Source of the DNA: Gammaproteobacteria bacterium
GTDB lineage: Bacteria > Pseudomonadota > Gammaproteobacteria > Arenicellales > JAJDZL01
Length of the DNA: 64,000 nt
Direction: 5' to 3'
Assembly: GCA_022823625.1 (NCBI GenBank)
Contig: JAJEHQ010000005.1
Span: 70,106-134,105 of the forward strand
The notes under the pieces are model-generated. The model saw nothing but the letters and a program-made list of their open reading frames with translations. It was not told the DNA's origin and ran no database searches. Numbering within the stretch: the first letter of the stretch is position 1; the number at the start of each line of letters is the position of its first letter. Positions 9,327 through 39,022 of the stretch are shown in pieces. The position numbers were made by a program, and so were the translations under genes.

Positions 9327-9362
9327 TCCCTCAAGAATCAGCACCACTTGACATTTGTTTTC

Positions 9363-9396
9363 ACCTGAAGTGCGGCTCATCAGCTGCACTTCAGGT
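9363..9396 (+). terminator. Stem-loop after the ABC importer operon (putative terminator)
   Basis: Perfect 11-bp arms ACCTGAAGTGC (9363-9373) and GCACTTCAGGT (9386-9396) with a 12-nt loop, 37 nt after the stop codon. No clear U-tract follows. Confidence 0.45.
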
Positions 9397-9731
9397 AACA
9401 TATCGAAATCGATTTACCATCTTCATCCACTATTTGAAGATTTGATATTTCACCGTTAAGCCTTGAGAAAGTTACGAATTTGTAGCACCTTTGCTCTGTC
9501 ATTGATGAATGACAGACACTAGTTAAACTACAAGGCTGAATTCCAGTCGTTGCGTTATTTGGACAGTTAGCTTATATGCATGCGTCTGAAAGGAAAATGG
9601 CAGTAAACCAACAAGGATTGGATGCATGACTCGCCAGGTGGACGATACGTCACTATCGTACGCGCTGGAAAATATTCAGGCCACTTGGCCTAACAAGCAC
9701 GAAATCGGAAAATTCAATTGATGAGACAGAC

Positions 9732-10916: not shown

Positions 10917-10922
10917 ATCGTC

Positions 10923-17550: not shown

Positions 17551-18771
17551 TTACCAGTCTTCGAGCGGATAACTGGTAAGCATTTCGTATCCTGTTTCAG
17601 TTACCAATACCTGCTCTTCCAGCTTGACTCCTTCCCCACCGTGAATGGAACCCATGTAAGATTCTACACATAGCGTCATTCCAGGTTCGAATACGCCGTC
17701 ATAGCCTTTTTTGTCGAAGTCCATGTAGTGTTTGATGCTGGGATATTCGTCGGCCAGCCCCACACCGTGAATAATCACACCATATCGATTGGGTTGAAAC
17801 TCCTCCGGCACAGGCCACGCATTTCTGGACAGTTCACGGAATTCCACCCCTGGTTTTATCAATTCAGTGTTGAAACGAATTTGTTCTGCTGCCAGCTGAT
17901 ATAGCCGCGCCTGCTCAGGTGTTGGTTTGACTTCGCCACAAATCCAGGAACGAGACATATCACAGCAATAACCATAGGGGCCAATCAGATCAGTGTCGAA
18001 ACTCATCATTTCGCCTTTCTCCATAACTCTCATCGAGGACTCTCTCATCCATGGATTGGTTCGTGGGCCAGATGCAAGAAGGCGCGTTTCAATCCATTCG
18101 CCACCCAATGCAATGTTGGTTTCATGTAACTTCGCCCACAATGCATTTTCCGTAATCCCTGGAGCCATCGCATCGCGCATGTTCGAGACAGCAGTTTCAC
18201 ACACCTGCACTGAATACTTCATCAATTCCAGTTCCTCGGGCGACTTGATGACTCGGGCAATCTCCATGACATCCTGCCCCTCAATCAATTCGATTCCGCA
18301 TTGTTCAAGCTCATGGATACCCAACAAGCTGCAACGATCGACAGCGAGCCTGCGATTGCCACCACCATATGTGGTGATCAGATCATTAATTTCCTGAGCA
18401 AATTTTTTGGCGTTTGCCTCACAACGCGATCCGGCAGCAAAAAAATAAAATGGTGTAATAACCCGGTATTCATCAATCGTTGGCAGATTTTCTGCAAGAT
18501 GAGGCATGTCTCCAAAATCCCACAGAATCACCGGCCCTTCAGTTGCAACAAACACGCAACGGGCTTCATAATGAGAGCACCAAATTTGCATGTTGGTCGC
18601 GTCAGTCACATACCGAGTGTTCAACTGATCAAACAAAAGCACTCCCGCGAGGTCATGCTTTTGGAGCTGTTGACGAACTCTTTCTACCCTGTAGCGCCTG
18701 ACGGTGTCCAGATCGACAGGAGGATCGGAGTATTCCATTGCGCCATGCTGACGATTTCCAGTGTTTGCCAT
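17551..18771 (-). CDS. M24-family metallohydrolase (Xaa-Pro dipeptidase / ectoine hydrolase DoeA / DddP-like)
   Basis: 406 aa with a creatinase-like N-domain plus a pita-bread domain. All five metal ligands appear present: FDTD, CCDMSRS, IIHGVGL, CVESYMG and KLEEQVLVT. Confidence 0.8.
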   Translation of the reverse strand: MANTGNRQHGAMEYSDPPVDLDTVRRYRVERVRQQLQKHDLAGVLLFDQLNTRYVTDATNMQIWCSHYEARCVFVATEGPVILWDFGDMPHLAENLPTIDEYRVITPFYFFAAGSRCEANAKKFAQEINDLITTYGGGNRRLAVDRCSLLGIHELEQCGIELIEGQDVMEIARVIKSPEELELMKYSVQVCETAVSNMRDAMAPGITENALWAKLHETNIALGGEWIETRLLASGPRTNPWMRESSMRVMEKGEMMSFDTDLIGPYGYCCDMSRSWICGEVKPTPEQARLYQLAAEQIRFNTELIKPGVEFRELSRNAWPVPEEFQPNRYGVIIHGVGLADEYPSIKHYMDFDKKGYDGVFEPGMTLCVESYMGSIHGGEGVKLEEQVLVTETGYEMLTSYPLEDW

Positions 18772-23471: not shown

Positions 23472-24386
23472 CTAGACTGGCCGGTCACCGTTAATCGTGA
23501 GGCGCCACATAACTCGTCGCTCACCCGGGTAGTCGTTCAGGGCGTAATGTTGCAGACAACGATTGTCCCAGAAAGCAATTGAGCCCGGTTCCCAGCGAAA
23601 ACTACAGCAAATATCCGGCTGTACTGCATGCTTGACCAGATAACGAAGAATTGATTCTGACTCTTCTTCGCTCATTCCTTCGATTCCAACTGTAAACGGC
23701 TCATTTACATAGAGTGCCTTTCGGCCGGTTTCAGGATGTGTACGAACAATTGGGTGAATGACGCGAATATTTGCACTACTGTCCGCGCGAATTGGTGTAC
23801 CTGCATGTTTGTCCTGGTAATCTGTGCTCGCATACTCGCCCTCATGACTGTAAACGTTTTCGGCGCTATGAATCGCGTTCAGACCCTCCAGCATCATCTT
23901 GTAGGTATCGGTAAGCATGTCGTAAGCCAGGTACTGGTTGGAAAATAAAGTATTCCCACCAAATTTTGGAACTTCCATCCCACACAAAATCGAACCCAGT
24001 GGTGGTTCTGCCTGGAAAGTTACATCGCTGTGCCATGTTCCCGAAAAGTTGTACTTGTCTTCTGGATTCTTGATCACCATCATGATTTCGGGATGTCCTT
24101 CCAATGAACCAACGTATGGATGAATATGGAATGACCCAAAACTTCTACCGAAATTCTTTAGGGAGTCAGGCTCGATGAGTTGATCACGAAAAAAGATAAC
24201 CAAGTGGTCGAGGAATGCCTGCTTGATTTCCTCTATCACTTCTTTTGAAACCGGATGTGAGATGTCTACACCAAAAATTTCAGCACCACACGCACCAGCA
24301 TAAGGTTTGACTTCAATGTGCTGATAGTCTTGCTGAACTGAATTGAGACCGGCTCCCGGAATCACCTTGGGTCGTTGCCATTTCAC
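23472..24386 (-). CDS. TauD/TfdA-family Fe(II)/2-oxoglutarate-dependent dioxygenase (taurine-dioxygenase-like)
   Basis: 304 aa colinear with E. coli TauD as I remember it: WHSDVTF (HxD), GGNTLF, HPIVRTHPETGRKALYVN, WDNRCLQHYA. GTG start. Confidence 0.85.
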   Translation of the reverse strand: MKWQRPKVIPGAGLNSVQQDYQHIEVKPYAGACGAEIFGVDISHPVSKEVIEEIKQAFLDHLVIFFRDQLIEPDSLKNFGRSFGSFHIHPYVGSLEGHPEIMMVIKNPEDKYNFSGTWHSDVTFQAEPPLGSILCGMEVPKFGGNTLFSNQYLAYDMLTDTYKMMLEGLNAIHSAENVYSHEGEYASTDYQDKHAGTPIRADSSANIRVIHPIVRTHPETGRKALYVNEPFTVGIEGMSEEESESILRYLVKHAVQPDICCSFRWEPGSIAFWDNRCLQHYALNDYPGERRVMWRLTINGDRPV

Positions 24387-24663: not shown

Positions 24664-26265
24664 ATGCACGCCGACACTTTTGATTACATCATCGTGGGTG
24701 GCGGAACAGCCGGATGTGTACTCGCAAATCGTCTTTCGGAAAACTCAAAACACTCTGTGCTGGTGCTTGAGGCCGGGAAGCGGGATACGAATCAATGGAT
24801 TCACATTCCCGTGGGTTACTTCAAGACGATGCACAATCCAGCAACAGACTGGTGCTACAACACCGAACCTGATCCAGGATTAAACAATCGATCAGTTAAA
24901 TGGCCGCGAGGAAAAGTACTTGGCGGCTCAAGTTCGATTAACGGTCTACTATATGTCCGCGGCCAAAAAGAAGATTACGATGACTGGGAGAATGCCGGCA
25001 ATCCCGGTTGGTCGTATGAGAACATGCTACCCTACTTCATCAAATGTGAGCACCAGGAGCGCGGCGCTGACGAGTATCACGGTCAGAATGGAATGTTGAA
25101 AGTGTCTGATATGCGAATACGTCGAGAAGTCGGTGATGCATTTATCAAGGGTGCTGAGGAAATCGGCATTCCTCACAACGACGATTTCAATGGCGCAACA
25201 CAGGAAGGCGTTGGATACTATCAGCTGACTGCCTGGAAAGGTAGGCGATGCAGCTCATCTGTTGGCTACCTGAAACCCGTTTCCAACCGCTCTAATCTGA
25301 AAGTCGTGACCAAAGCGCTGACATGTCGAATTGTTATCGATGAAAACCGCGCATCGGCTGTGGAATATGAGCAGGATGACAGAAATTTCACTGTCCGTGC
25401 TAGTCGTGAAGTCATCATCTGTGCCGGTGCGATCAATTCTCCACAGCTGCTGATGCTGTCGGGCGTCGGAAATCCTGATCATCTGCGAGAATTTCAAATC
25501 CCCGTCAAACACAACTTGCCTGGTGTTGGCGAGAACCTTCACGATCACCTTCAAATTCGGTCGGTGTATCGCTGTTCAGTCAAGACACTGAATGATGAAA
25601 TTCGAAATCCAATCTACAAAATGCTGATCGGCATGCAGTATTTTGCGTTTCGTACCGGACCAATGAGCATGGCGGCAAGTCAGATTGGCATATTTACAGG
25701 ATCCTTGCCACATATCAATCGCCCAGATATCCAATTTCATTTTCAACCTCTAAGTTCTGACAGTCCTGGTCAAGGTGTTCACAACTACTCAGGCATAACG
25801 TCTTCTGTTACACAGCTTCGCCCAACCAGCCGCGGGAACCTGCAACTAAGGTCAGCCAATCCCCGGGACTACATCGCCATCCATCCAAATTACCTAGCCA
25901 CTGAGGAAGACCAGGTGATCACGGTCAATGCAATGAAGGTGTCCAGAGCCATTGCAAACAGCAAGGCAATGTCGCAATACGTCGAGGAAGAAGTGTTACC
26001 AGGGGATCAGGTGCAAACCGACGAAGAACTGCTCGATTTTGCTAGAAATATTGGCGAAACTATTTATCACCCGGTAGGAACATGCAAAATGGGGCCGGTT
26101 TCAGACCCAATGGCGGTTGTCGATTCAACGCTCAGGGTTCACGGTATAAATGGCTTACGAGTCGTGGATGCATCGATTATGCCCGTGATCACCTCGGGTA
26201 ATACCAATGCACCAACGTTTGCAATCGCTGAGAAAGCGGCTGATATGATTATTGGGAAAAGCTAA
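24664..26265 (+). CDS. GMC-family FAD oxidoreductase (choline/alcohol dehydrogenase-like)
   Basis: 533 aa with DYIIVGGGTAGCVLANRLSE, GGSSSINGLLYVRG, HPVGTCKMG and VVDASIMPVITSGNTNAPTFAIAEKAAD. Confidence 0.9.
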   Translation: MHADTFDYIIVGGGTAGCVLANRLSENSKHSVLVLEAGKRDTNQWIHIPVGYFKTMHNPATDWCYNTEPDPGLNNRSVKWPRGKVLGGSSSINGLLYVRGQKEDYDDWENAGNPGWSYENMLPYFIKCEHQERGADEYHGQNGMLKVSDMRIRREVGDAFIKGAEEIGIPHNDDFNGATQEGVGYYQLTAWKGRRCSSSVGYLKPVSNRSNLKVVTKALTCRIVIDENRASAVEYEQDDRNFTVRASREVIICAGAINSPQLLMLSGVGNPDHLREFQIPVKHNLPGVGENLHDHLQIRSVYRCSVKTLNDEIRNPIYKMLIGMQYFAFRTGPMSMAASQIGIFTGSLPHINRPDIQFHFQPLSSDSPGQGVHNYSGITSSVTQLRPTSRGNLQLRSANPRDYIAIHPNYLATEEDQVITVNAMKVSRAIANSKAMSQYVEEEVLPGDQVQTDEELLDFARNIGETIYHPVGTCKMGPVSDPMAVVDSTLRVHGINGLRVVDASIMPVITSGNTNAPTFAIAEKAADMIIGKS

Positions 26266-26285: not shown

Positions 26286-26978
26286 TCAATCGTTATCGTC
26301 TACTTCTGCTCCAGCACCGCTACGTCTTGACAGGTCACTGTTTGGTACAAACGACTCCGCTGCCTTTTTCTTCAATATCTGTAAGCTTTCTAAGTCGATA
26401 CTGATCCGCCGTGAACTAAGGCTCTGAAGCTTTGACTGACTGAAGTGCCAATTGAGTCCTGTCTTATCAAAAAAAGACAAATCAACAGACAATTGGTTGG
26501 ACACACACACGACCAAAATCTCTTTAGAGTCCTGCCAATCGCGAGTCCAGAACGATTCTTCAGCCGTCCAGATTTCACCATTATCGATGATGATTCGAGA
26601 ATTGGGCAGTTGCAACCGAATACAGAGATTTAAATTAGACCTAGCTAGTGCAAGCGGCAAAAGCAAAGCGATTGCCTTTGAATTCTCTACTCTCGCAGTA
26701 CAGGCTTTATTCAAGGAACCGGCAACTGCGGCAAGCCGATCAAGAGTTTCAATCAAATATAGAGTGTTGAGGCTTTCAGTTTCAGGTTCACGTTGCAATT
26801 CAGGCAGTAAATCTGCCAGAAACTTCAATGGAACAGTGTCTGTTGCTGCAAGCCAAACTAGTGCATTTCCAATTTCGATATCAGCACCTGGCGGGATTCC
26901 AAGTGCCGATAGAACACGCCTGGTCAGGGTACAACATTCACTGTTTGACAGCTGTACCGTAGCTCGAATCTCGCGCAT
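26286..26978 (-). CDS. Hypothetical protein, 230 aa, no recognisable family
   Basis: The track ORF runs to 27029. However, ATG 26976-26978 (MREIRATVQLS...) overlaps the upstream stop by 1 nt (TGATG), which implies translational coupling. The composition is normal for a soluble protein. Confidence 0.55.
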   Translation of the reverse strand: MREIRATVQLSNSECCTLTRRVLSALGIPPGADIEIGNALVWLAATDTVPLKFLADLLPELQREPETESLNTLYLIETLDRLAAVAGSLNKACTARVENSKAIALLLPLALARSNLNLCIRLQLPNSRIIIDNGEIWTAEESFWTRDWQDSKEILVVCVSNQLSVDLSFFDKTGLNWHFSQSKLQSLSSRRISIDLESLQILKKKAAESFVPNSDLSRRSGAGAEVDDND

Positions 26979-28693
26979 CAGGATGAGGCAGCCGCAGAGG
27001 TTGTCAGTGGTACTACAGGGAAAGCCCAATCGTCCGCAAAATCACGATCGATTTCATCGTGTAGAGGTGCACCCTGAAACAGCGTGATCCGAGTCCAGAG
27101 ATTGGATTTCGGATCGAATCTAGTCGCCCCGAATATTGCAAGCTTGCAGCGAAGCAAATCGATAGGCAGACATTCCCTGCCGAGCAGGTTATTCTGAATC
27201 TCAGCATATTCGAAGTCTGTAAGGGACTGTATGCGAGAAACGATATGTCGAAATTTTGGATGCAGACGCAATAAGTCAGCTACTGACGAGCATTTGTCAT
27301 TAGAATCGAGATCGCGTATGGTCTTATATAAAGCACTGACATCTCTGGCAATTCCTACCTTCATTTCTAACTCACAGCCAGGTTCCAGATAGCGTTTACC
27401 CAATCTCGGCTCTTCTTTTTCCTGTGAAACGTACCAAAAATAATGTTGAGAATCCAGATGTTCAAAATCCACATCCAGTGCCCACGCGTAGCGCATTTCA
27501 ATACAGTTCTTTAATTCCACCAGTCCCATAGATGGATCAAAATAAGTGAATTCATCAACTCCCATCATGTTTTCGAGTTCATTGATTTCATTTGGATAAA
27601 TTTCAAGAATCAAACTATTCAGCAATTCCTGACACTCCATACTGGTATTTTGCAGCGCCCAATCTGAAAGCTGTTGCCAGACCGATTGATCATCATTTAT
27701 CTGACTCAGCTCTATTTTGAGTCTAGTAACTTCCTCCTTTAGTACCAAAATACGTTCTGCCTGTCTTGGATCTTCGGTCTGCCACTGCTTCAAATGTCCT
27801 TCGGCCCTTTCAATCAGCTTCTTAAAGTGGTTCAACTTCTGACGTGTCACTTTTGATCTGGATTTTGCAATTACAATTGCAGACTCCCGGATCTTTATCC
27901 ACTGGCCAATCAGTTGAGGATGACCAATCAAAAACGGTGCCATTCCAAGGCCAGTAGCATTACCGACTCCAATCGCCCGCTTTAGTTCTCTCGATAACCC
28001 AACTGCCTGGGCTTGATCGCGCTGTTTAGCAATATGTTCAACCAAATCAATACTCAACTGTCTGGCCATATAGACGGTGAGCATTTCTGCCTGAAACGGC
28101 AAACCAAATGGCGTTGACTGCTTGACCTCGTGAAAATCCATCACCCCAAATTTTCCGTTGCCGTAAACGGCAGTGGTTCGAATAAGGTATCCGATCTTCA
28201 TTATTTCCACTACATCCGGTTGAACACCTGAGGCAAGGCAATCAATGACTGAATTGAACAGGCGAACACTCTTATTGGCTCTGCTCATTACCAGTTCAGA
28301 TTCACTGAGGCGACCTGCCTCCTGGTACGGCAATTCCCGACTAAGCCGTTTAATGTCAGCATCACTCGGAATTCCGTTGAACAGTGTAAAGCACATATCC
28401 CACTTTTCAGCAATTACTCGATCAGTGCGATCATCCGCATCAAGTTCCGCAACAAATGAAATGAAACTAACAGGACCTGAAGGAGTATGAATCAGATAGA
28501 TTAAAGTTCCGTAACCTGATTCATCGAGAGTGTTTCTGAAAATTTCGAAACGCCACTTTTCGCGATTCATCCGTCGTACCAGCGTTCGTGTAAAGCTCAA
28601 GCGACTTGAATGAAACGAGCCTAAACGCTCCAATTTCATCACTGTTTCAGGTGGCCGAAGTAACTGACCGAACTGTTGGTTGATATGTTTCAA
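26978..28693 (-). CDS. Hypothetical protein, 571 aa, no recognisable family
   Basis: A long clean ORF with a TTG start at 28693, 26 nt after the M19-like stop; the alternative is ATG 28639. No TM segments and no nucleotide-binding or metal motifs that I recognise. There is a central charged helical stretch. Confidence 0.6.
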   Translation of the reverse strand: MKHINQQFGQLLRPPETVMKLERLGSFHSSRLSFTRTLVRRMNREKWRFEIFRNTLDESGYGTLIYLIHTPSGPVSFISFVAELDADDRTDRVIAEKWDMCFTLFNGIPSDADIKRLSRELPYQEAGRLSESELVMSRANKSVRLFNSVIDCLASGVQPDVVEIMKIGYLIRTTAVYGNGKFGVMDFHEVKQSTPFGLPFQAEMLTVYMARQLSIDLVEHIAKQRDQAQAVGLSRELKRAIGVGNATGLGMAPFLIGHPQLIGQWIKIRESAIVIAKSRSKVTRQKLNHFKKLIERAEGHLKQWQTEDPRQAERILVLKEEVTRLKIELSQINDDQSVWQQLSDWALQNTSMECQELLNSLILEIYPNEINELENMMGVDEFTYFDPSMGLVELKNCIEMRYAWALDVDFEHLDSQHYFWYVSQEKEEPRLGKRYLEPGCELEMKVGIARDVSALYKTIRDLDSNDKCSSVADLLRLHPKFRHIVSRIQSLTDFEYAEIQNNLLGRECLPIDLLRCKLAIFGATRFDPKSNLWTRITLFQGAPLHDEIDRDFADDWAFPVVPLTTSAAASS

Positions 28694-28719
28694 GGTGCGA
28701 TTGAATGAATAAGCGAAGT

Positions 28720-29772
28720 TTAACTCTGGCGAGACAGTCCTTCTTCAAAAAAACGAAACCAGTTGCCACCCATAATCATCCTGACCTCTCCATCAGAAAA
28801 TCCTGCGGTTGCAAGACCATCCGCGACATTTTGCAGGTCTTCATTTTTTTGAAACCAAGAAGGATAATCTGGCCACTCAATTTGAGACTGACTGTCCATT
28901 TCATCATCCCACGTGCCACGTCTCATGTAATTGAGATAATCGCTACCCCAATCGAGGCATAAATCTGTACCCAGCCCGAGATGCTCGACTCCGATCAAGT
29001 CCGCCGTTCTTAAGACCATGTCGCAAAAGTCTTCCAGTTTGCAGTCGCTGCCATTTGCCAGATGAAGTGGATAAATGCTAAATCCCAGCATCCCACCAGT
29101 TCTTGCCAACTCTCTAAGCAACTCATCAGACTTATTTCTAACGACCTTGCGGAACGAGATCGGATTGGCGTGGGTGATTGCGATAGGACGTTCACTGCAC
29201 TCTATTGCTTCGAAACAGGTTCGCTCGGAAGTATGAGAAACATCAACAATAATTCCCAGACGATTCATCTCCCGAACAGCAATACGGCCGAATCGGGTCA
29301 ATCCTGCATCATCTTCCTCGTAACATCCGGTGCCAACATGATTCTGGTTGTTGTAGGTCAACTGCATGATGCGTATGCCTAACTGATGATAGATTTCGAT
29401 TAAGGAAAAGTCATCCCCAATTGGCGAGGTATTTTGGAAGCCTAGAACAATGCCGGTGCGACCGGTCTGATGGGCATTTTTAATGTCAGCAGCGTCATTT
29501 ACACGCAAAATTAAATCCTTATGTTCCTCAAACCAACGATTCCACTTGCCGATTTGTTTCAGTGTTTCACTGCAACTGTGCCAAAACGCAACGGTAACGT
29601 GTACTGCAGTTACGCCGGAATTTACCAAAGATTCGAAGTGAGGCCGAGACCAGTTGGAAGCCTGCAGGGCATCAATTACTGGAAATGATTCTTGTACTTT
29701 CAATGCTTTAATTTCTACTTGTTGATGAAGTGATCTTATCGCTACGGCAAACGAACGATTGAAACAGATCAA
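28720..29772 (-). CDS. M19 (renal/membrane dipeptidase) fold protein with a degenerate binuclear-zinc site
   Basis: Colinear with the human DPEP1 pattern from memory. PVIDALQAS replaces PVIDGHNDL and LGFQNTS replaces IGVEGGH. DVSHTS, AITHANP, VRNKSDE and LGLGTDLCLD are retained. TTG start; TTG 29703 is an alternative. Confidence 0.75.
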   Translation of the reverse strand: MICFNRSFAVAIRSLHQQVEIKALKVQESFPVIDALQASNWSRPHFESLVNSGVTAVHVTVAFWHSCSETLKQIGKWNRWFEEHKDLILRVNDAADIKNAHQTGRTGIVLGFQNTSPIGDDFSLIEIYHQLGIRIMQLTYNNQNHVGTGCYEEDDAGLTRFGRIAVREMNRLGIIVDVSHTSERTCFEAIECSERPIAITHANPISFRKVVRNKSDELLRELARTGGMLGFSIYPLHLANGSDCKLEDFCDMVLRTADLIGVEHLGLGTDLCLDWGSDYLNYMRRGTWDDEMDSQSQIEWPDYPSWFQKNEDLQNVADGLATAGFSDGEVRMIMGGNWFRFFEEGLSRQS

Positions 29773-30026
29773 TAGATTGAACTGTAATCATAACGCGGAT
29801 GTCCGAACTGATTGGAACCAAATGACTGATAAATATACTTTTGGTCAGTACGGAACGTTTCAGTCCAATTGTTATTCGCTTCAGCAGTAATTTTAATTTG
29901 GGTCCATATGAGTCCAATCGAGATACACCATAATAGTGAACGTGGGTAATAACCCATTCGTTCCACTTTAACAAAGCTATTCAATACCAATTCACGTAAG
30001 AAATTGAACTCGTAGTCAAAGCCATC

Positions 30027-31457
30027 ATGAATGAACTTATCTCGAAAACCGCATGTGAAGTTGTTGATCTGTTACGGGCACGGGAAATCTCCCCCGTAGA
30101 TGCCGTCACTGCTTCTGCAGATCGAATTGAACAGGTTGAAGCAAGCATTAATGCAATGCCGACTCTTTGCATTGATCAGGCTTTGGAAAAAGCCAGGGAG
30201 TTGGAAAGGCAGCAACCATTCGGTCATTCAGAGTATCGAGACTGGCTGGGAGGATTACCGATATCAATCAAAGACTTAACTGAAACCGCGGGAGTTCGAA
30301 CAACTTTTGGCTCACCAATTTACAAGGATTACATACCTGCCAAATCAGACATCCTGGTACAGAAGCTAGACTACCGCGGCACAATTATGATGGGTAAATC
30401 GAACACTCCAGAATTTGGTGCAGGAGCCAGTACATTCAATGAGGTTTTCGGTGTGACACGAAACCCCTGGAATACAAGCAAGTCCGTCGCCGGTTCATCG
30501 GGCGGCGCGTGTGCTTCAATCGCATCAGGCGAAGTATGGCTGGCGACCGGGTCTGATCTTGGCGGAAGTTTAAGGACACCTGCCAGCTTCAATTCTGTAG
30601 TCGGATTGCGACCCAGTCCGGGAAGAGTACCCAGAAGTCGAACACAGGAACCGTTTAGTTGCCTGCATGTACAAGGCCCAATCGCTCGAAACTGTCGAGA
30701 CACAGCGCCCTTTCTTGATGTAATGTCCGGATTTCATCCGTCTGACCCTTTGAGCTACCCGGCTTCACAAAAGCCATATATGGATTACATTGACAATCCA
30801 GTCAAACCAAGACGGATTGGATACACGCCAGACCTCGGAATTACAGTCATTGATCCGGAAGTCGCTCAGATCTGCAAGGATGCTGTTCAAAAATTTCAAA
30901 CACTCAACATACCGGTTGATGAAGGGAGCCCCAACTTTAGCGGTGCGATTGAAAGCTTCGATGTGTTGCGCGGTGCTTCATTCGTCACAAATCTCATGGG
31001 CGAATACAGGAATCACGAACATCTATTAAAGCCAGAAGTTGTCTGGAATATTGAAAAAGGATTCAAGCTGACAGCCGATGCGATCAGTCAGGCACAATTG
31101 ACACAGGCCAAGATTTTGCAGTCGGTGATTCGATTTTTTGACAAGTTTGATCTACTCATTTGTCCCTGTGCAATTGTGCCTCCCTTTGACTCTGAAATTA
31201 GATTTGTCGAATCGTTGGGAGAGCACACATTCGATACCTACTATGAGTGGCTCGCAATTACTTTTGCTCTGACATTGACAGGTTGTCCGGTGCTGGCTGT
31301 ACCAGCTGGATTCACCCGCGACGGCTTGCCGGTCGGACTGCAGATCATTGGACCGCCGAGGGATGAAGGGCCCATACTTTCAGCCGGATTTTTACTTGAG
31401 CAGTTAACCGGAACTTCAAAGCAACTACCAATTGATCCAAATGTAACCCATCTTTGA
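30027..31457 (+). CDS. Amidase-signature (AS) family amidase
   Basis: 476 aa with LPISIKDLTETAGVRTTFGS and AGSSGGACASIASG. It is a paralog class of the amidase at 10923. Confidence 0.85.
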   Translation: MNELISKTACEVVDLLRAREISPVDAVTASADRIEQVEASINAMPTLCIDQALEKARELERQQPFGHSEYRDWLGGLPISIKDLTETAGVRTTFGSPIYKDYIPAKSDILVQKLDYRGTIMMGKSNTPEFGAGASTFNEVFGVTRNPWNTSKSVAGSSGGACASIASGEVWLATGSDLGGSLRTPASFNSVVGLRPSPGRVPRSRTQEPFSCLHVQGPIARNCRDTAPFLDVMSGFHPSDPLSYPASQKPYMDYIDNPVKPRRIGYTPDLGITVIDPEVAQICKDAVQKFQTLNIPVDEGSPNFSGAIESFDVLRGASFVTNLMGEYRNHEHLLKPEVVWNIEKGFKLTADAISQAQLTQAKILQSVIRFFDKFDLLICPCAIVPPFDSEIRFVESLGEHTFDTYYEWLAITFALTLTGCPVLAVPAGFTRDGLPVGLQIIGPPRDEGPILSAGFLLEQLTGTSKQLPIDPNVTHL

Positions 31458-31681: not shown

Positions 31682-32155
31682 ATGAAGTTCTTGATCCTGC
31701 CTTTTTCTTTTCTTGCTGTGTTCTGGTTGATCCTTTCCGGACACTACACAACTTTACTGCTAGTTCTTGGTGCTGTTTCATGTATCTGGGTTCTGAGAAT
31801 CTCGCATCGAATGAAGATTGTCGACCTTGAAGACTATCCCATCCATTTAGTCCCTTGGAGGATTATTTATTATTGGTTTTGGCTGATCAAAGAAATCATG
31901 TTGTCCACCTGGACCGTTAGCAAAATCATTCTTACCCCAAAGTCAAGAATCAGCCCCAAAGTGGTTTGGCTGCCGGCAGACGAAATGAGTGATATGCAGA
32001 AAGTGATATACGCGAACTCAATTACTCTCACTCCTGGTACTCTCACCATTGAAGCTGATAATTCCAGACTGGAAATTCATACCTTGCGAGGTGATATGCT
32101 GGAACCACTTGAACGGGGTGACATGGCTGACCGCGTCAGAAAACTCGAGTACTAG
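31682..32155 (+). CDS. mrpE: Cation/proton antiporter subunit E (MrpE/MnhE)
   Basis: 157 aa with the MnhE block ANSITLTPGTLTIE. Confidence 0.8.
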   Translation: MKFLILPFSFLAVFWLILSGHYTTLLLVLGAVSCIWVLRISHRMKIVDLEDYPIHLVPWRIIYYWFWLIKEIMLSTWTVSKIILTPKSRISPKVVWLPADEMSDMQKVIYANSITLTPGTLTIEADNSRLEIHTLRGDMLEPLERGDMADRVRKLEY

Positions 32156-32171
32156 ACTTTAGCCTGTCAGT

Positions 32172-32459
32172 ATGATCGCCGGCGCCCTAATTGCAGTTCT
32201 AGTGGGAATGGCCCTCTTGCTCATCAGGGCATTCGTTGGGCCAGACATCTACAATCGAATATTGGCAGTCAATAATTTCGGCACCAAGACAGTGCTCGTC
32301 ATCGCGCTTTACGGTTTTTTGACAGACCGACCCGACTTTCTTGACATTGCAATCGTCTATGCACTGTGTAATTTCATTGCCACCATCGCCATTCTGAAAT
32401 ATTTCGAGTACGGCGACCTCGGTCATGTTGGCGAGCAGCCAGAGGACGAAAGACAGTGA
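32172..32459 (+). CDS. mrpF: Cation/proton antiporter subunit F (MrpF/MnhF)
   Basis: 95 aa, 3 TM helices, ILAVNNFGTKTVLVIAL...DIAIVYALCNFIATIAILKY. Confidence 0.75.
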   Translation: MIAGALIAVLVGMALLLIRAFVGPDIYNRILAVNNFGTKTVLVIALYGFLTDRPDFLDIAIVYALCNFIATIAILKYFEYGDLGHVGEQPEDERQ

Positions 32460-32773
32460 TGGATCTGATTCTGTTGATCATCAGAGACATTTTTCTTGTC
32501 ACTGGTTCTATTGCAGTGCTTATTGGAGCATTTGGCGTACTTCGATTACCAGAACTGTTTTGCAGAATTCATGCAGCTGGGATCACTGACACAGCCGGTG
32601 CAGGATTGGTCATTACTGGTCTGATGATCGAATCCGGTTTCACTCTAGTTTCTCTCAAACTCTTAGTGATTTTTGTTTTTCTGTTCTTCACGAGTCCTAC
32701 ATCTTCTCACGCCCTTGCTAAATCGGCCATACACGGTAATGTACTACCTGTTACAGATCTGCCCAAAAGGTGA
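32456..32773 (+). CDS. mrpG: Cation/proton antiporter subunit G (MrpG/MnhG)
   Basis: 105 aa with FGVLRLPELFCRIHAAGITDTAGAGL and a 4-nt overlap with mrpF. Confidence 0.8.
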   Translation: MMDLILLIIRDIFLVTGSIAVLIGAFGVLRLPELFCRIHAAGITDTAGAGLVITGLMIESGFTLVSLKLLVIFVFLFFTSPTSSHALAKSAIHGNVLPVTDLPKR

Positions 32774-33324
32774 TTGCCATCGAACTTGTCGTTAACTTTA
32801 CATTGCTCGGTTTTCTGCTTGTAACAGCACTTTACATTTCGCAGACAAATCGGCTGTTTCGCGCGGTTATGTTGTTTGGAATCTACAGCCTGTTGACGGC
32901 AAGCCTTTTCGTTGCACTTGATGCGGTCGATGTCGCATTCACCGAAGCTGCAGTCGGCACATGTATAGCCACCATCCTGATGCTGAGTGCACTATCTTTG
33001 ACCGGCTCGCGAAAAGAGGTCCGCTTCCGTCGCAAAAATGCTACATTCGCTGTTTGTGTTTCTATCGCCCTAGGTGTGGCACTTGCGATTGGTATTATGG
33101 ACATGCCGCAATTTGCAGACCCGAATGCTCCAGCCAATCTACACGTAGCACCTTACTACCTCCAAGATTCGTACTCGGAGATCGGCATTCCTAATGTTGT
33201 CACTTCGGTTCTGGCCAGCTATCGGGGTTATGACACGCTTGGTGAAGTCGTGGTGATTTTTACAGCTGGCATTGGCGTAATCGCCCTGCTGACTGCCAGG
33301 ACTTCCAAACCCAAGGAGGACTGA
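32770..33324 (+). CDS. MrpA-C-terminal-like small membrane subunit (DUF4040 / MbhD-E type)
   Basis: 184 aa, polytopic, with the block ASYRGYDTLGEVVVIFTAGIGV typical of the MnhB-like domain of MrpA. Confidence 0.65.
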   Translation: MIAIELVVNFTLLGFLLVTALYISQTNRLFRAVMLFGIYSLLTASLFVALDAVDVAFTEAAVGTCIATILMLSALSLTGSRKEVRFRRKNATFAVCVSIALGVALAIGIMDMPQFADPNAPANLHVAPYYLQDSYSEIGIPNVVTSVLASYRGYDTLGEVVVIFTAGIGVIALLTARTSKPKED

Positions 33325-33328
33325 GCCA

Positions 33329-33766
33329 ATGAAGCAGCATTTGATTCTGCACGTCATTGCAAAGATTATGATCCCATTTATTATGGTGTTCGCCCTTTAT
33401 GTTCAGTTTCACGGTGACTATGGACCTGGAGGTGGATTCCAGGCTGGTGTAATCTTTGGTGCCGGATTCATTCTATACGGCATCGTTCTAGGTAAGGAAG
33501 CAACGATGAAAATAGTACCGCCGCCACTAGTCTACACAACAGCCGCACTGGGTGTGCTTCTCTACACTGGTGTCGGCGTTGCTGGCATGTTTTTAGGCGG
33601 CGAATTTCTTAACTACAGTGTACTTTCTGCCGACTCTGTCGCCGGGCAACACCTCGGAATCCTACTCATCGAATTTGGCGTTGGCATGACAGTGGCATCG
33701 GTGATGATCATTCTGTTTCTGAGCTTTGCAGATTATCGACAGCCAGAATCTGAAAACACAAACTAA
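33329..33766 (+). CDS. mrpB: Cation/proton antiporter subunit B (MrpB/MnhB)
   Basis: 145 aa with HGDYGPGGGFQAGVIFG. Confidence 0.8.
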   Translation: MKQHLILHVIAKIMIPFIMVFALYVQFHGDYGPGGGFQAGVIFGAGFILYGIVLGKEATMKIVPPPLVYTTAALGVLLYTGVGVAGMFLGGEFLNYSVLSADSVAGQHLGILLIEFGVGMTVASVMIILFLSFADYRQPESENTN

Positions 33767-33772
33767 ATTCAA

Positions 33773-34126
33773 ATGGAAAGCATCGGGATCGTCAACTATT
33801 GGATCGTCATCGCACTGATGATGATTGCGTTGTATATCGTGATATCAGCTAACAATCTCATCAAAAAAATTATTGGACTGAATATATTTCAAAGCTCGGT
33901 TTTCATTCTCTACATCAGCATCGGTAAGGTGGGTGGAGGAACCGCGCCGATTTTACTGAAAGAACCAGCTGTCTACTCCAATCCCCTGCCCCATGTGCTC
34001 ATACTCACTGCTATTGTTGTGGGTGTTGCAACAACGGCTCTGGGGCTAGCCCTGATCGTCAGAATTCGCTCTGCTTTTGGAACAATCGATGATCAAGATG
34101 TACAACAGGACATAGAGCGAAATTAA
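33773..34126 (+). CDS. mrpC: Cation/proton antiporter subunit C (MrpC/MnhC, NuoK-like)
   Basis: 117 aa, 3 TM helices, with NLIKKIIGLNIFQSSVFILYI and LTAIVVGVATTALGLAL. Confidence 0.8.
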   Translation: MESIGIVNYWIVIALMMIALYIVISANNLIKKIIGLNIFQSSVFILYISIGKVGGGTAPILLKEPAVYSNPLPHVLILTAIVVGVATTALGLALIVRIRSAFGTIDDQDVQQDIERN

Positions 34127-34127
34127 G

Positions 34128-35609
34128 GTGCTGAGCTTACACTTAAGCGCCTTGCAGGTCGTCATTCCTCTACTCGCCGCACCACTGTGTGCGATTATTA
34201 GAATACCTGGTGTTACCTGGCTGATCGCCCTTGCAGTTGGTATCGCCAGCAGCATCAATTCGATAGCGATACTTCTTCATATCAATAGGTTCGGAGAAAT
34301 CGTCTATTCACTCGGCGGCTGGGCAGCTCCATTTGGAATTGAGTACAGAATCGACAGTGCGAACGCTCTTATTCTACTGATTATCAGTTTCATTTATCTG
34401 TTGGGAATCATCTACGCCCCTGCCAGCATTAAAACTGAAGTTCCAGAGAAGAGTCAGGGATGGCTGTACACAGCCTGGATTCTTTGCTTTACTGGCCTAT
34501 CCGGCATTACGATATCCGGTGATGTGTTTAACGTCTTTGTCTTTCTGGAAGTATCATCCCTTTCCACATACATTCTGATCAGCTTCGGACAAGACAAACG
34601 TTGTCTGACAGCAGCGTTTCGTTATCTGGTAATGGGAACCATCGCCGCAACCTTTTACCTGGTTGGTATCGGCTTTCTTTATTCGCTGACCGGCACCTTG
34701 AATATGGCTGATCTGGCACAACGACTCCCAGACCTGATCAGTCAAAATACTGTTGCTGTTGCATTCGGCTTTGTTATTGTCGGACTGGCGATCAAAATGG
34801 CGTTGTTTCCATTTCACGCCTGGCTACCAAATGCCTATGCTTATGCACCAAATGCAGTTACTGCTTTTCTTGCTGGCACCGCCACTAAGGCCGCTGTCTA
34901 TGTTTTCATTCGACTCACATTTGAAGTTTTCCCGGAAGACTATTTCTCAGGATTCACCTCGTCGCACCACATAATTCTTGCTGTTGGCATCTTCAGCGCG
35001 GTGATTACCTCGGCCATCGCAATTTTTCAGGATGATCTCAAACGCCTGTTTGCGTGGTCTAGCATCGGACAGATTGGCTACATTGCCGTCGGCGTGGGTT
35101 TGGCATCAACTGCGGGGGTCGCAGCGTCGTTTTTGCATCTTTTCAATCATTCAATCATGAAGACTGCAATCTTTATGGCAATTGGAGGCCTGTTTTTCGT
35201 AACCGGGTCGACAACAACGGCAGCACTGAAAAATGCGGGTCGACGCATGCCATGGACAATGGCAGCAATTCTCATCGGGGGACTTAGCCTGATTGGCGTC
35301 CCATTCACTACAGGATTTATCAGCAAGTGGTACCTGGTATCAGCATCACTTGAACAAAATTTCTGGTGGCTTGCAGGTTTGATTCTGCTCGGATCCTTAG
35401 TAACCGCAGCTTATGTCTGGAAAATTGTCGAAATTGCATATTTTCGAAAGGACCCGAATGTAAAAGTTGTACGACAGGAAGCCCCACTGTCGCTTCTGAT
35501 TCCAACCTGGATTCTGGTTGTAGCCAATATCTATTTTGGCGTTGATGCACGATTTTCTGGTTCGATGGCAACCCAGGCCGCTAACACAATTCTCGGAGTT
35601 TCTCCATGA
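34128..35609 (+). CDS. mrpD: Antiporter-like subunit, MrpD/NuoN-M family (copy 1)
   Basis: 493 aa, GTG start 1 nt after the mrpC stop, proton-conducting membrane transporter blocks (FVFLEVSSLSTYILI, PFHAWLPNAYAYAP, SSIGQIGYI). Confidence 0.85.
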   Translation: MLSLHLSALQVVIPLLAAPLCAIIRIPGVTWLIALAVGIASSINSIAILLHINRFGEIVYSLGGWAAPFGIEYRIDSANALILLIISFIYLLGIIYAPASIKTEVPEKSQGWLYTAWILCFTGLSGITISGDVFNVFVFLEVSSLSTYILISFGQDKRCLTAAFRYLVMGTIAATFYLVGIGFLYSLTGTLNMADLAQRLPDLISQNTVAVAFGFVIVGLAIKMALFPFHAWLPNAYAYAPNAVTAFLAGTATKAAVYVFIRLTFEVFPEDYFSGFTSSHHIILAVGIFSAVITSAIAIFQDDLKRLFAWSSIGQIGYIAVGVGLASTAGVAASFLHLFNHSIMKTAIFMAIGGLFFVTGSTTTAALKNAGRRMPWTMAAILIGGLSLIGVPFTTGFISKWYLVSASLEQNFWWLAGLILLGSLVTAAYVWKIVEIAYFRKDPNVKVVRQEAPLSLLIPTWILVVANIYFGVDARFSGSMATQAANTILGVSP

Positions 35610-37072
35610 TGAGTGCATCCACGATACAGCTTTATTGTCTCGTTGCACCTATTGTCGCGGTTGTCTTGATTGTAACAGTTGGACGCGTATTTCCAATTTT
35701 GTATGAAACCATCAATGCCTCAGTTGCAGTAATCACCTTTCTGCTGACTCTTTCCCTGTACAGCGCATTAGGTGAAGGAACAATCGAATCTATGGTTCTG
35801 TTTGAGCCTTTTGCAGGCGTGTCTATCGCACTTCAGGCTGAGCCACTTGGAATACTGTTCGCGATGATGGCAAGCTTCCTGTGGATTATCACGTCGATTT
35901 ATTCTTTTGGATATATGCGAGGTCACGGCGAGACTAACCTTGCCCGCTTTAACATCTTCTTTGCAATCGCAATTTCAAGTGCAATGGGAATTGCACTTGC
36001 AGCCAATGGATTTACGCTATTTCTGTTTTATGAAGTACTGACCCTGTCAACATTTCCGCTGGTTACCCACGCTGGGTCAGATAAAGCAAGAAGAGCCGGT
36101 CGAATTTATCTGTTTTTACTGCTGGGGACATCTGTCGGTATGCTGTTGCTAGCCTTAATCTGGACATGGATCCTAACCGGCACTCTAGATTTTCGGGCAG
36201 GTGGAATTCTGGATGGAGATATCAGTAAAACAACGCTCAACATACTCTTGGTACTCTATGTCTTCGGAATCGGTAAAGCAGCACTGATGCCGTTTCACCG
36301 ATGGTTGCCGGCCGCTATGGTTGCACCGACACCCGTCAGCGCTTTACTACACGCTGTCGCTGTGGTCAAAGCAGGGGTATTTTCGATATTGAAAGTTTCG
36401 ATCTATATCTTTGGAATCGATTTGCTACAGGAACTGGAAGTGCACCGTTACCTGGCTTATGCCGCTGCATTTACGATTGTAGCGACTGCAATCATCGCAC
36501 TCCGAAAGGACAATCTTAAAGCACGTTTGGCGTATTCCACGATCGGCCAGCTATCTTACATTGTGCTTGGCGCTCTCGTCGCCAATGCCGCCGGGATTGT
36601 TGGTGGCGGTCTCCATATGCTCATGCATGGCTTTGGGAAAATTACCCTGTTTTTTGGTGCAGGGGCCATACTTGTGGCGACACACAAAACCGAAATCAGT
36701 CAAATGCGTGGCATCGGACGACGAATGCCCGTTACCATGATCACATTTCTGATCGGCAGCATTGTAATTGTGGGAGCACCACCAACTGGCGGCATGTGGA
36801 GCAAATGGAACTTGTTACTAGGTGCAGCCAACACAACGGATTGGCTATTACTCGCCGCTCTGATCGTTGGCTCTCTGCTGAGTGCGCTATACCTACTACC
36901 TATCGCTGTTCGAGCATTCTATCACTCGCCTGATGACGGCAACGAGACGATTAAGGAAGCGCCGGTTTCGATACTGATCGCACTGATTATCAGCGCTGCT
37001 GGCTGCATCATTCTGTTTTTTGCCCCAGACTTTGCATTTGACTTGATGAATATGATTACATCATCAGAATGA
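35606..37072 (+). CDS. mrpD: Antiporter-like subunit, MrpD/NuoM family (copy 2)
   Basis: 488 aa, 4-nt overlap, with LFLFYEVLTLSTFPLV, PFHRWLPAAMVAPTPVSALLHAVAVVKAG and STIGQLSYI. Confidence 0.85.
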   Translation: MMSASTIQLYCLVAPIVAVVLIVTVGRVFPILYETINASVAVITFLLTLSLYSALGEGTIESMVLFEPFAGVSIALQAEPLGILFAMMASFLWIITSIYSFGYMRGHGETNLARFNIFFAIAISSAMGIALAANGFTLFLFYEVLTLSTFPLVTHAGSDKARRAGRIYLFLLLGTSVGMLLLALIWTWILTGTLDFRAGGILDGDISKTTLNILLVLYVFGIGKAALMPFHRWLPAAMVAPTPVSALLHAVAVVKAGVFSILKVSIYIFGIDLLQELEVHRYLAYAAAFTIVATAIIALRKDNLKARLAYSTIGQLSYIVLGALVANAAGIVGGGLHMLMHGFGKITLFFGAGAILVATHKTEISQMRGIGRRMPVTMITFLIGSIVIVGAPPTGGMWSKWNLLLGAANTTDWLLLAALIVGSLLSALYLLPIAVRAFYHSPDDGNETIKEAPVSILIALIISAAGCIILFFAPDFAFDLMNMITSSE

Positions 37073-37335
37073 CTGATATGAAAAAGGACCACGAGACAAA
37101 TTCAGATTTACCGCGAGCTGTCGGACTTCGACGGATACTCAAGTGGTTCTATGCCGCATGTGCAATCGTAGTTCTGCTTGACCTGGTAATTCATCGTCAT
37201 ATTTACCATCCCTGGGAGTCACTGCTGTTTTTCTATTGCGTGTTTGGATTTGTCGCCTGTGTTTTTCTGGTAGTTGCTGCAAAATGGATGCGAAAACTGT
37301 TGATGCGCAGCGAGGATTACTACGATGGGTATTGA
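37069..37335 (+). CDS. Small two-TM membrane protein of unknown function embedded in the antiporter cluster
   Basis: 88 aa with two hydrophobic helices (WFYAACAIVVLLDLVI and LLFFYCVFGFVACVFLVVAA). It overlaps the upstream gene by 4 nt and the downstream gene by 11 nt. Confidence 0.55.
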   Translation: MTDMKKDHETNSDLPRAVGLRRILKWFYAACAIVVLLDLVIHRHIYHPWESLLFFYCVFGFVACVFLVVAAKWMRKLLMRSEDYYDGY

Positions 37336-39022
37336 TATCCCTCCTTTTGTAATCTTCTTCGCAGGAGCATTGCTGGCGCTCATGGTGCGTCGGACTCTGC
37401 TGTCGTTAATCTGTATCCTCGTTCCGCTAGTCAGTGCAGCCTTTCTGATTTTTAGCAATTCCCCAGAGGCACGCATTGAAACGTCAGTAATCGGCTTGCA
37501 GCTGATCCTGTTTAATCCAGATAAACTTAGCCTCGTCTTTGGTTATGTTTTCCATATTGCAGCGTTTCTGGGTGGCATATTTGCGTGGCGCATTAGAGAC
37601 CCAGTTCATCAAGCCGCTTCGCTTGCTTATGCAGGTAGTGCATTAGGCGCAGTATTTTGTGGAGACCTAATCACGCTGTTTATGTTTTGGGAGTTGATGG
37701 CATTTACCTCTGCATTTTTGATTTGGTGCGGAGGAACTCGAAACTCTATCGATGCCGGAATTCGATACCTGATTATTCAAATCATATCCGGATTTCTACT
37801 GCTGGCTGGGGCAGTGATGCACTACCAGCAAACCGGTTCTCTAGAGTTCACACATATTGGTCTTTCCAGCACAGCCGCCACTCTAATCTTCATTGCATTT
37901 GGTATCAAGTGCGTGTTTCCTCTGCTACATAACTGGCTAACTGATGCCTATCCGGAAGCAACACCCGCTGGAACCGTTTTTCTCAGCGCCTTTACAACCA
38001 AAGTGGCGGTTTACGCATTGGCACGGGGGTTCGCTGGCACAGAGTCATTGATTTACATTGGGATGATCATGACCTGCTTTCCAATTTTCTACGCGGTCAT
38101 TGAAAATGACCTTCGCCGGGTCTTGACCTATAGCATGATTAACCAGATTGGCTTCATGGTGGTCGGCGTCGGCATCGGCACCGAACTCGCCATCAACGGC
38201 GCAGCGAGTCATGTCTTCAGCCATATCATCTACAAGGCGCTCTTGTTCATGTCGATGGGTGCGGTGCTCTATCGTACAGGCAAGATCAATGGTTCTGACT
38301 TGGGTGGATTGTACAAATCAATGCCGAAAACTGCCACATTCTGTATTATTGGTGCTGCTTCTATTTCGGCATTTCCATTGTTCAGCGGGTTTGTCAGCAA
38401 ATCAATGGTGATATCAGCGGCATTGATTGAAGGTTATGACATGGTTTGGCTTGCGTTGCTGTTCGCATCTGCTGGTGTGTTTCACCATTCTGGAATTAAA
38501 ATCCCGTTCTTTGCATTTTTTGCTCATGACTCGGGCATTCGTGTGAAAGAGGCGCCAACCAGTATGTTGATTGCGATGGGGATTGCTGCCGCACTTTGCA
38601 TTGGTATCGGTATTTTCCCACAATACCTTTACAGTCTGTTGCCGTATGAAACAAATTATTCGGCCTATGATGCAACCCACGTTCTCGCCCAGATTCAACT
38701 GCTGCTGTTTTCAGCGCTGGCATTTGTCTGGCTTAAATTGTCAGGAATCTATCCACCTGAATTGAGAAGTGTCAACATTGATGCGGAATGGGTCTACCGA
38801 AAAGGATTCACTGTAGCAGGTCGCTGGTTGACTATTGCCACGCAGGCAGTCATTGCTTCGACCTATTCAATATTGCTAGGGCTTATTGACCGCGTCTATC
38901 GGATGATTCTTAACACCACAGGGCTGAATTCTAGAGTTGCCAGGGAATGGACAGTTGATCTCGCAGTAGCAATTGTAGTATTGCTATTTTCGATATTCAT
39001 AATCTTCCTGGTCGCTGCGTGA
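37325..39022 (+). CDS. Antiporter-like subunit, MrpA/NuoL-MrpD family (copy 3)
   Basis: 565 aa with LFMFWELMAFTSAFLI, LHNWLTDAYPEATPAGTVFLSAFTTKVAVY and SMINQIGFMV, plus an extended C-terminus. Confidence 0.8.
   Translation: MGIDIPPFVIFFAGALLALMVRRTLLSLICILVPLVSAAFLIFSNSPEARIETSVIGLQLILFNPDKLSLVFGYVFHIAAFLGGIFAWRIRDPVHQAASLAYAGSALGAVFCGDLITLFMFWELMAFTSAFLIWCGGTRNSIDAGIRYLIIQIISGFLLLAGAVMHYQQTGSLEFTHIGLSSTAATLIFIAFGIKCVFPLLHNWLTDAYPEATPAGTVFLSAFTTKVAVYALARGFAGTESLIYIGMIMTCFPIFYAVIENDLRRVLTYSMINQIGFMVVGVGIGTELAINGAASHVFSHIIYKALLFMSMGAVLYRTGKINGSDLGGLYKSMPKTATFCIIGAASISAFPLFSGFVSKSMVISAALIEGYDMVWLALLFASAGVFHHSGIKIPFFAFFAHDSGIRVKEAPTSMLIAMGIAAALCIGIGIFPQYLYSLLPYETNYSAYDATHVLAQIQLLLFSALAFVWLKLSGIYPPELRSVNIDAEWVYRKGFTVAGRWLTIATQAVIASTYSILLGLIDRVYRMILNTTGLNSRVAREWTVDLAVAIVVLLFSIFIIFLVAA

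Follow-up and report, generated by a model that had tools for sequence, protein, structure and literature searches.

What is the function of a tightly spaced trio of genes when one product resembles a dipeptidase and the other two belong to no named protein family? This question is raised by a 64,000-nucleotide stretch of contig JAJEHQ010000005.1 (hereafter the window) from an Arenicellales-type marine gammaproteobacterium, in which three co-directional genes occupy positions 26286 to 29772 of the minus strand. The first encodes an M19-fold protein (28720-29772, (-), 350 amino acids (aa) as listed; Pfam PF01244, 2.8e-77). The second, whose product is the conserved hallmark of the module, encodes an orphan protein of 571 aa (26978-28693, (-)) and starts with a TTG 26 nt past the M19 stop. 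The third encodes a 230-aa protein (26286-26978, (-), 693 nt), whose ATG has one base in common with the preceding TGA (TGATG, 26980-26976). An earlier sequence-only reading of this DNA had given the same layout, including a 254-bp divergent spacer ahead of the M19 start at 29772, and the open reading frames (ORFs) agree with it. It had also taken the trio for an undescribed system, a claim that I have to abandon, as the three genes correspond in order, size, protein type and taxon to homC, homB and homA of homABCDER, an established pathway for the catabolism of homarine (N-methylpicolinate). Judged by this correspondence, the genes are almost certainly of the homC, homB and homA types. I put the probability at about 65% that the trio is the homC-homB-homA core of a homarine operon, lacking co-located homD, homR and BCCT transporter genes.

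Homarine is among the most abundant small nitrogen-containing metabolites of marine plankton and invertebrates, and the genes for its breakdown were named only in 2026. The operon homABCDER, located at ACFLL8_11490-11520 in Cobetia sp. OBi1 and at SPO3188-SPO3192 in Ruegeria pomeroyi DSS-3 (Ferrer-Gonzalez et al., Nat Microbiol 2026, PMC13236597), was published in March of that year on the strength of transcriptomics, knock-outs and isotope tracing (PMC13236597). In Cobetia, a member of the Halomonadaceae, homarine induces homE, homA (~700 nt), homB (~1,700 nt), a gene for a betaine-type transporter, homC ('peptidase'), homD (aldehyde dehydrogenase, ALDH) and homR, and growth on homarine is abolished by knock-out of homB, homC, homD or homR (PMC13236597). 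The homA and homB genes are adjacent in 97.7% of 11,755 genomes and their hidden Markov models are specific, unlike those of homC and homD; the latter two genes are 'typically nearby', not always adjacent, and the published operon search required homABCD within 10 kb (PMC13236597). In R. pomeroyi SPO3191 is the ALDH, and SPO3188 figures as a 'hypothetical protein' in an older paper.

In order to place the window among its relatives, I use 80 genomic loci gathered for the 571-aa gene from Halomonas, Marinobacter, Pseudomonas, Paraburkholderia, Roseobacters, SAR116, Chloroflexota, Acidimicrobiales and Poribacteria; the counts of gene order, made after ORF calling and clustering, cover 69 of them. 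Four Halomonadaceae loci read LysR, ALDH, M19, BCCT, 571-aa protein, DUF3726 protein (255 aa) and RidA, which matches the Cobetia order homR-homD-homC-transporter-homB-homA-homE in every position, size and protein type, and the full order is also present in Marinobacter. Two Roseobacter loci, one of them from Phaeobacter inhibens, show LysR, ALDH, M19, in some cases BCCT, the 571-aa protein and the DUF3726 protein, matching SPO3192-SPO3188. On plasmid pPGA1_262 of P. inhibens the annotated series consists of sarcosine-oxidase-like (mgd-like) genes, LysR, ALDH, 'membrane dipeptidase', BCCT, 'hypothetical protein' and 'DUF3726 domain-containing protein', and in strain P66 the DUF3726 gene is followed by genes for an Ldh-family oxidoreductase and an FAD (flavin adenine dinucleotide) oxidoreductase of 806 aa. 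Literature searches found no papers for DUF3726, none for P. inhibens together with membrane dipeptidase, and nothing relevant for peptidase M19 with BCCT and catabolism.

The window has the same three core types: an orphan gene of ~1.7 kb in the place of homB, directly followed by a gene of ~0.7 kb in the place of homA, and an M19 'peptidase' gene immediately upstream in the place of homC. Its gene order is that of the Roseobacter and SAR116 loci, and the trio shares with the hom operon a distribution over marine Alpha- and Gammaproteobacteria. Against the 571-aa-type proteins that Halomonadaceae and Roseobacter loci encode in the place of homB, the window HomB shows 43-46% identity over 96% of its length. 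Taken by type, it is 43-45% identical to the Halomonas-type and likewise 43-45% to the Roseobacter-type proteins; between these two types the identity is 41%. A neighbour-joining tree of HomB, rooted on a paralog from Sinorhizobium meliloti, places the window clade, to which two further Arenicellales loci (L001 and L002) belong, between those of the Halomonadaceae and the Roseobacters. By blastp the window HomA-like protein clusters with the DUF3726 genes that trail the 571-aa gene elsewhere, and its M19 protein is 46-64% identical to the M19 proteins of other loci, with which it has the active-site signature in common. The window extends the hom module to an Arenicellales-type lineage with different companion genes.

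That the three genes form one functional module, as the sequence-only reading had suspected, is borne out by a gene order that is kept across phyla. An M19 gene lies beside the 571-aa gene in 62 of the 80 loci (tblastn); among the 69 it is directly upstream in 36 and one gene further off in nine, and a DUF3726-type gene of ~230 aa follows the 571-aa gene directly in 51. The checks proposed earlier, namely synteny outside this genome and homologs of the 571-aa ORF, therefore came out positively: a word-indexed database contains more than 7,400 homologs of the protein, each either unnamed or 'hypothetical', and an exhaustive search yielded 1,803 representatives of 50%-identity clusters. Homologs at 43-92% identity come from Alpha- and Gammaproteobacteria, Chloroflexota, Acidimicrobiales and Poribacteria. 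Across the loci the recurrent extra genes encode a LysR regulator, an ALDH, a BCCT transporter, an Ldh_2-family oxidoreductase and RidA, and DMGDH-like or sox/mgd-like genes are frequent neighbours. In L002 a 2-kb insert (5893-7946 of that locus) with a 222-aa lipoprotein-like ORF separates the M19 and 571-aa genes, so that the tight homC-homB spacing of the window is not obligatory.

Several observations weigh against the identification of the trio as a homarine core. The match was made by way of gene order, gene sizes, protein types and taxonomy, in place of a direct alignment with the published sequences. A tblastn search of the 64-kb window with the operon-type ALDH (E <= 1e-5) found no homD, and Pfam annotation gives no ALDH among the neighbouring genes. 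Likewise, the operon-type LysR (homR) has no match in the 64 kb, which also hold no hom-type BCCT, Ldh_2, RidA or DMGDH-like gene, nor did they yield any mgd/sox genes. As homD is missing from the 64 kb, the locus falls outside the published definition of homABCD within 10 kb and would not have been counted. The genes that do accompany the trio, for an amidase, a GMC-family flavoprotein and a TauD-family dioxygenase, are foreign to the described hom operon, and an S. meliloti trio with a 571-aa-type protein ~30% identical to that of the window stands in quite a different context. A flavin, NAD (nicotinamide adenine dinucleotide) or metal domain that could supply a cofactor for the oxygenase step of the chemistry set out below is recognisable in neither HomA nor HomB, as judged by Pfam and NCBIfam scans and, for HomB, by Foldseek; the FAD-binding motifs ascribed to HomA (PMC13236597) were not reproduced.

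These points bear on a closely related explanation, by which the window encodes a sub-functionalised relative of the hom module that acts on another zwitterionic N-heterocycle or N-methylated compound, for example a pyridinium or betaine from sponges or algae, with the amidase, GMC and TauD proteins acting downstream. The absence of homD, homR and BCCT from the whole window would agree with this, as would the conservation of the three companions with the trio in this lineage only and the presence of a hom-type ALDH in just 19 of the 69 sampled loci. The paralogous trio on S. meliloti pSymB (locus L084, CP140883.1, 8241-19689) points the same way; there the order is IclR, the 571-aa-type protein, a ~240-aa gene, an M19 dipeptidase, an ABC transporter, a class-III aminotransferase, succinate-semialdehyde dehydrogenase and RidA. 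This context indicates that the module is not tied to one substrate, and the S. meliloti trio is probably a related module with a different substrate; its HomA-like protein is without the C-terminal GAGAG-DND tail, which in the window clade reads GAGAE where other members have GAGAG. However, the window HomB is no farther from either validated clade than these are from each other, lies between them in the tree, and keeps all family-invariant residues. The ALDH and regulator may moreover be encoded elsewhere in the genome, and the published account describes homC and homD as not always adjacent. I regard a different substrate as rather unlikely, but a related substrate or a re-wired downstream pathway is an alternative to be taken seriously.

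Among the companions, the amidase of the amidase-signature family (30027-31457, (+); PF01425, 1.1e-93) is divergent from the trio and shares with the homC-like gene the intergenic spacer (29773-30026), presumed to be the promoter region of both. It is below every NCBIfam equivalog cut-off, and it recurs in the same divergent position in L001 and L002 with 66-68% identity, as a companion of the trio that is specific to this lineage. The GMC-family (choline-dehydrogenase-like) flavoprotein (24664-26265, (+); PF00732 and PF05199), convergent with the homA-like gene, scores 634 bits against NF002550 (cut-off 605) and is conserved beside the trio in L002 (68% identity) and in a further locus, L081. 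It may take the place of the aldehyde dehydrogenase HomD, which is missing here, a role suggested by inference only. The TauD/TfdA-family 2-oxoglutarate dioxygenase (23472-24386, (-); PF02668, 3.5e-65) has a counterpart at the corresponding site of L002, with 77% identity, and of L081. Directly after the amidase lies an operon for a multi-subunit Mrp-type cation/proton antiporter (31682-39022, (+)), the small subunits of which also flank the amidase in L001 and L002.

The 571-aa protein shows no match in Pfam (2025 copy) or NCBIfam (June 2026), even at E <= 10, and the family profile returned only noise from the PDB sequences (E >= 0.13). An AlphaFold2 model from an alignment of 23 sequences reached a predicted local distance difference test (pLDDT) of 83 and a predicted template modelling score (pTM) of 0.88. 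Foldseek placed it near nothing in the PDB (best E = 1.4, template modelling score (TM) below or about 0.12), so that, as modelled, the HomB fold is without a solved relative there. Scattered kinase-like matches (E ~5) were rejected as chance, and a relationship with the Ldh_2 family was discarded after profile alignment with hhalign gave a probability of 0.1%. Arg, Trp and Tyr are abundant among the invariant residues, which include only one His and one Cys and contain no known cofactor motif. The low-confidence loops of the model coincide with the most conserved motifs, RTDRV, GNGKFG and SxEKEEPR, which suggests that they are active-site or interface loops; a further invariant loop reads GNATGLGMAP. 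HomB is presumed to be the ring-opening catalytic subunit.

The 230-aa protein likewise reaches no Pfam or NCBIfam family at threshold, so the earlier statement that neither it nor the 571-aa protein could be assigned to a family stands; it is a divergent, sub-threshold match to DUF3726 (PF12525, 16.2 bits with a cut-off of 22.1). Two homologs pass that cut-off with 26.7 and 33.7 bits, and fused forms do so too. The structural comparison that had been proposed for the two orphan proteins, fruitless for HomB, was informative here: the AlphaFold2 model (pLDDT 84) superposes only on type-2 malate/lactate dehydrogenases (Ldh_2), which make up all of the top 23 Foldseek matches, with query-normalised TM of 0.43-0.57 and 0.52-0.57 for most, and which include ureidoglycolate (AllD), sulfolactate (ComC) and 2,3-diketogulonate (YiaK) dehydrogenases and DpkA. 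Profile alignment of HomA with the Ldh_2 genes that often follow homA in these operons gave 80.6% probability (hhalign, E = 1.3e-5) over the N-terminal 119 columns. HomA thus looks like a truncated Ldh_2 fold, as far as the model can tell. It differs from true Ldh_2 proteins in being ~110 residues shorter (230 vs ~340 aa), in having W-L where the Ldh_2 neighbours have the H-G of the conserved SHG catalytic His, and in staying below the threshold of any Ldh_2 sequence model, Pfam included.

The acidic, glycine-rich C-terminal tail of HomA (FVPxSxxSRxxGAGAGxxDND; window 26286-26330) has no counterpart in Ldh_2 proteins and is the best-conserved part of the family. In the window it reads SRRSGAGAEVDDND, in keeping with the form GAGAEVDDND of its clade, and it is disordered in the monomer model. 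This tail may be the source of the published reading of an FAD-binding motif.

HomA and HomB are predicted to form a physical complex, of which HomA is presumed to be the partner subunit. The overlap of stop and start codons, the adjacency in 51 of 69 loci, single-chain fusions and the published AlphaFold-multimer model, with scores of 0.92-0.95 (PMC13236597), support this; the evidence does not reach the M19 protein. Four HomB-HomA fusions of 776-816 aa carry DUF3726 after residue ~570. A divergent class of 840-960 aa (P0269-P0317) has a C-terminal extension of ~330-380 aa that begins with a DUF3726-like helix and has no Pfam match.

The M19 protein is easier to place. It matches PF01244 with 260 bits (cut-off 26) over profile positions 18-319 of 319, and thus has the TIM-barrel amidohydrolase fold of peptidase M19, known from renal dipeptidase (dehydropeptidase I), GliJ and Sco3058. 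Its nearest solved structure is 2i5g, an 'amidohydrolase' of Pseudomonas aeruginosa (1.8e-60). In an alignment with GliJ and 2i5g, in which canonical ligands such as His152 carry the numbering of the human enzyme, IDGHND is changed to IDALQ, the bridging Glu to Gln113 and His152 to Tyr140, while H180, H201 and D270 are kept. The same holds throughout the family: in all 49 aligned M19 sequences, that of the S. meliloti paralog included, H-x-D of the first site is replaced by A/G/C-L-Q, the bridging Glu by Gln and the substrate-binding His152 by Tyr, and the two His of the second site and the catalytic Asp (H180, H201, D270) are invariant in 49 of 49. The crippled zinc site that had been noted in the window protein is thus real, and it is conserved. 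Judged from this alignment, the metal site of HomC is remodelled rather than decayed, and it is probably mononuclear. The 2i5g protein has lost H-x-D, Glu and His as HomC has, differs at the subfamily signature positions, and probably represents a sister subfamily; it may be the product of the dipeptidase-like gene beside the dimethylglycine demethylase genes dgcAB.

Which reactions could these proteins carry out? According to the published work, the homarine ring is opened with the N-methyl group intact and with the loss of one carbon, features of C7H9NO5, C6H9NO4 and C6H9NO3 and N-methylglutamate accumulate in isotope tracing, and N-methylglutamate is demethylated to glutamate by N-methylglutamate dehydrogenase (mgdABCD), often annotated as sarcosine oxidase (PMC13236597). 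From these formulas, and by analogy with trigonelline degradation, I derive a scheme of which the individual step assignments are tentative. First, the HomA-HomB complex would cleave C5-C6 of the N-methylpyridinium ring to give 2-(N-methylformamido)-5-oxopent-2-enoate (C7H9NO4), in which C6 would form an N-formyl group and C5 an aldehyde. Second, the aldehyde would be oxidised to 2-(N-methylformamido)pent-2-enedioate (C7H9NO5), by HomD elsewhere and in the window perhaps by the adjacent GMC flavoprotein or an unlinked ALDH. Third, HomC would remove the formyl group as formate, leaving N-methyl-dehydroglutamate (C6H9NO4); a deformylase role is suggested because its fold is that of renal dehydropeptidase, which hydrolyses N-acyl-dehydroamino acids, a family preference that fits the proposed enamide substrate. 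Finally, N-methyl-dehydroglutamate would be either reduced to N-methylglutamate, a reaction that the Ldh_2-family reductase of other loci would fit, or hydrolysed to 2-oxoglutarate and methylamine, which RidA (homE) would fit.

All published metabolite formulas are consistent with this scheme. It is further supported by the operon ALDH, which is nearest to 2,5-dioxovalerate dehydrogenase, an enzyme that acts on the oxo analogue of the aldehyde proposed here, and by the frequency of DMGDH-like or sox/mgd-like genes beside the module. The Ldh_2 neighbours resemble DpkA-type N-methyl-amino-acid dehydrogenases, and together with RidA they fit an imine or enamine intermediate. A purely hydrolytic (Zincke-type) ring opening by the M19 protein was considered and rejected, as it gives a C7 aminoadipate-type skeleton and not the loss of C6 with conversion of C5 into a carboxylate. 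On balance, homarine is the most likely substrate of the window module, and a fairly probable one.

The analogy is with the degradation of trigonelline (N-methylnicotinate), an isomeric N-methylpyridinium carboxylate, by the TgnAB-C-D-E pathway that Perchat et al. reportedly described in PNAS in 2018 for Acinetobacter baylyi ADP1. The same comparison is drawn for homarine catabolism in the literature (PMC13236597). Both pathways include an aldehyde dehydrogenase, and the proposed logic would be the same: direct cleavage of C5-C6 would give an N-methylformamido aldehyde or lactol, which would be oxidised to a diacid of the formula C7H9NO5 and then hydrolysed. There are differences as well. Domain scans with Pfam and NCBIfam, by which the proteins were compared instead of by alignment, show in HomA and HomB neither the flavin-reductase nor the flavin-oxygenase domain of TgnAB, the modelled fold of HomB is unmatched in the PDB and that of HomA resembles NAD(P)-dependent Ldh_2 enzymes, and the hom end product N-methylglutamate keeps its C-N bond, whereas in the trigonelline pathway methylamine and succinate semialdehyde are released.

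One could speculate further that HomA and HomB are a new class of N-methylpyridinium ring-opening enzymes, in which an unmatched HomB fold is combined with a degenerate Ldh_2-like subunit whose tail (SRxxGAGAGxxDND) is inserted in HomB, with a cofactor or mechanism unlike that of the flavin two-component oxygenases. In this proposal the Arenicellales version, consisting of the trio with amidase, GMC and TauD but no ALDH, would be a distinct pathway variant for homarine or a related metabolite. As it stands this is a doubtful, though not a fanciful, idea. The HomB fold, the Ldh_2-like fold and tail of HomA, the fusions and the metal-site loss of HomC provide handles on the unsolved biochemistry of ring opening. 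The interest that remains in this locus lies in this uncharacterised enzyme chemistry, in the disagreement with the published FAD binding of HomA, and in the ALDH-less variant with amidase and GMC flavoprotein. It also illustrates a more practical matter: as HomB is still without a model in Pfam and NCBIfam, and HomA has one for a DUF only, annotation keeps calling these genes 'hypothetical' and scans flag them as new.

The sequence-only reading had seen in the trio a three-subunit amidohydrolase-fold complex, hydrolysing a non-peptide amide, lactam or N-osmolyte. As for the substrate it came close, since it named the class of nitrogen-containing, osmolyte-like compounds; its complex is another matter, as the evidence for a complex covers HomA and HomB only. 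The tight gene spacing, the altered metal site of the M19 fold and the C-N hydrolases in the neighbourhood are what one would expect of an undescribed complex acting on an amide or lactam. However, the module matches a genetically characterised pathway, and the M19 gene is often split off by a transporter gene and comes after the other two in S. meliloti, so that only HomA and HomB behave as obligate partners. Hydrolysis alone would, moreover, explain neither C7H9NO5 (homarine + O2 + H2O) nor the loss of C6 with C5 turned into a carboxylate, and I consider such a complex highly improbable. A decaying, non-functional hom remnant that has lost homD and homR would account for the accessory genes missing from the window, but is hardly credible given three intact ORFs with every family-invariant residue present and an arrangement that is kept in many relatives of 83-99% identity from independent assemblies and, at ~60% identity, in L001 and L002.

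The exact starts of two genes deserve a word. In the homB-like gene, conservation begins at residue 12 (LRPP..VM.L.RLGSFH), upstream of the ATG chosen by the gene caller, which would give a product of 553 aa; this supports the long form of 571 aa. Most M19 relatives at 90% identity are called at 327 aa, which suggests that the true start of the homC-like gene is likely the TTG at 29703 (327 aa), rather than the TTG at 29772 (350 aa), in which case the spacer to the amidase would measure 323 bp. A scan for promoters and terminators between 26000 and 30300 gave counts equal to the shuffled expectation.

The remainder of the window is a chromosomal mix that includes the housekeeping genes leuA, ilvC, cysS and pnp. 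A second block for the catabolism of nitrogen compounds (1369-12218) encodes an arginase-family ureohydrolase together with a Rieske oxygenase and a class-III aminotransferase; an ABC transporter of the OpuA (glycine-betaine) type, an AllG-like protein and a second amidase belong to it as well. Between this block and the trio lies a gene for a DddP-like M24 protein of the creatinase/prolidase fold (17551-18771, (-)), which is below the NCBIfam cut-off for DddP. Proteins of this kind recur at or near the trio in five gammaproteobacterial loci, in one of which (L036) the identity with the window protein is 62%, and they are sometimes accompanied by a DMGDH-like flavoprotein of ~806 aa.

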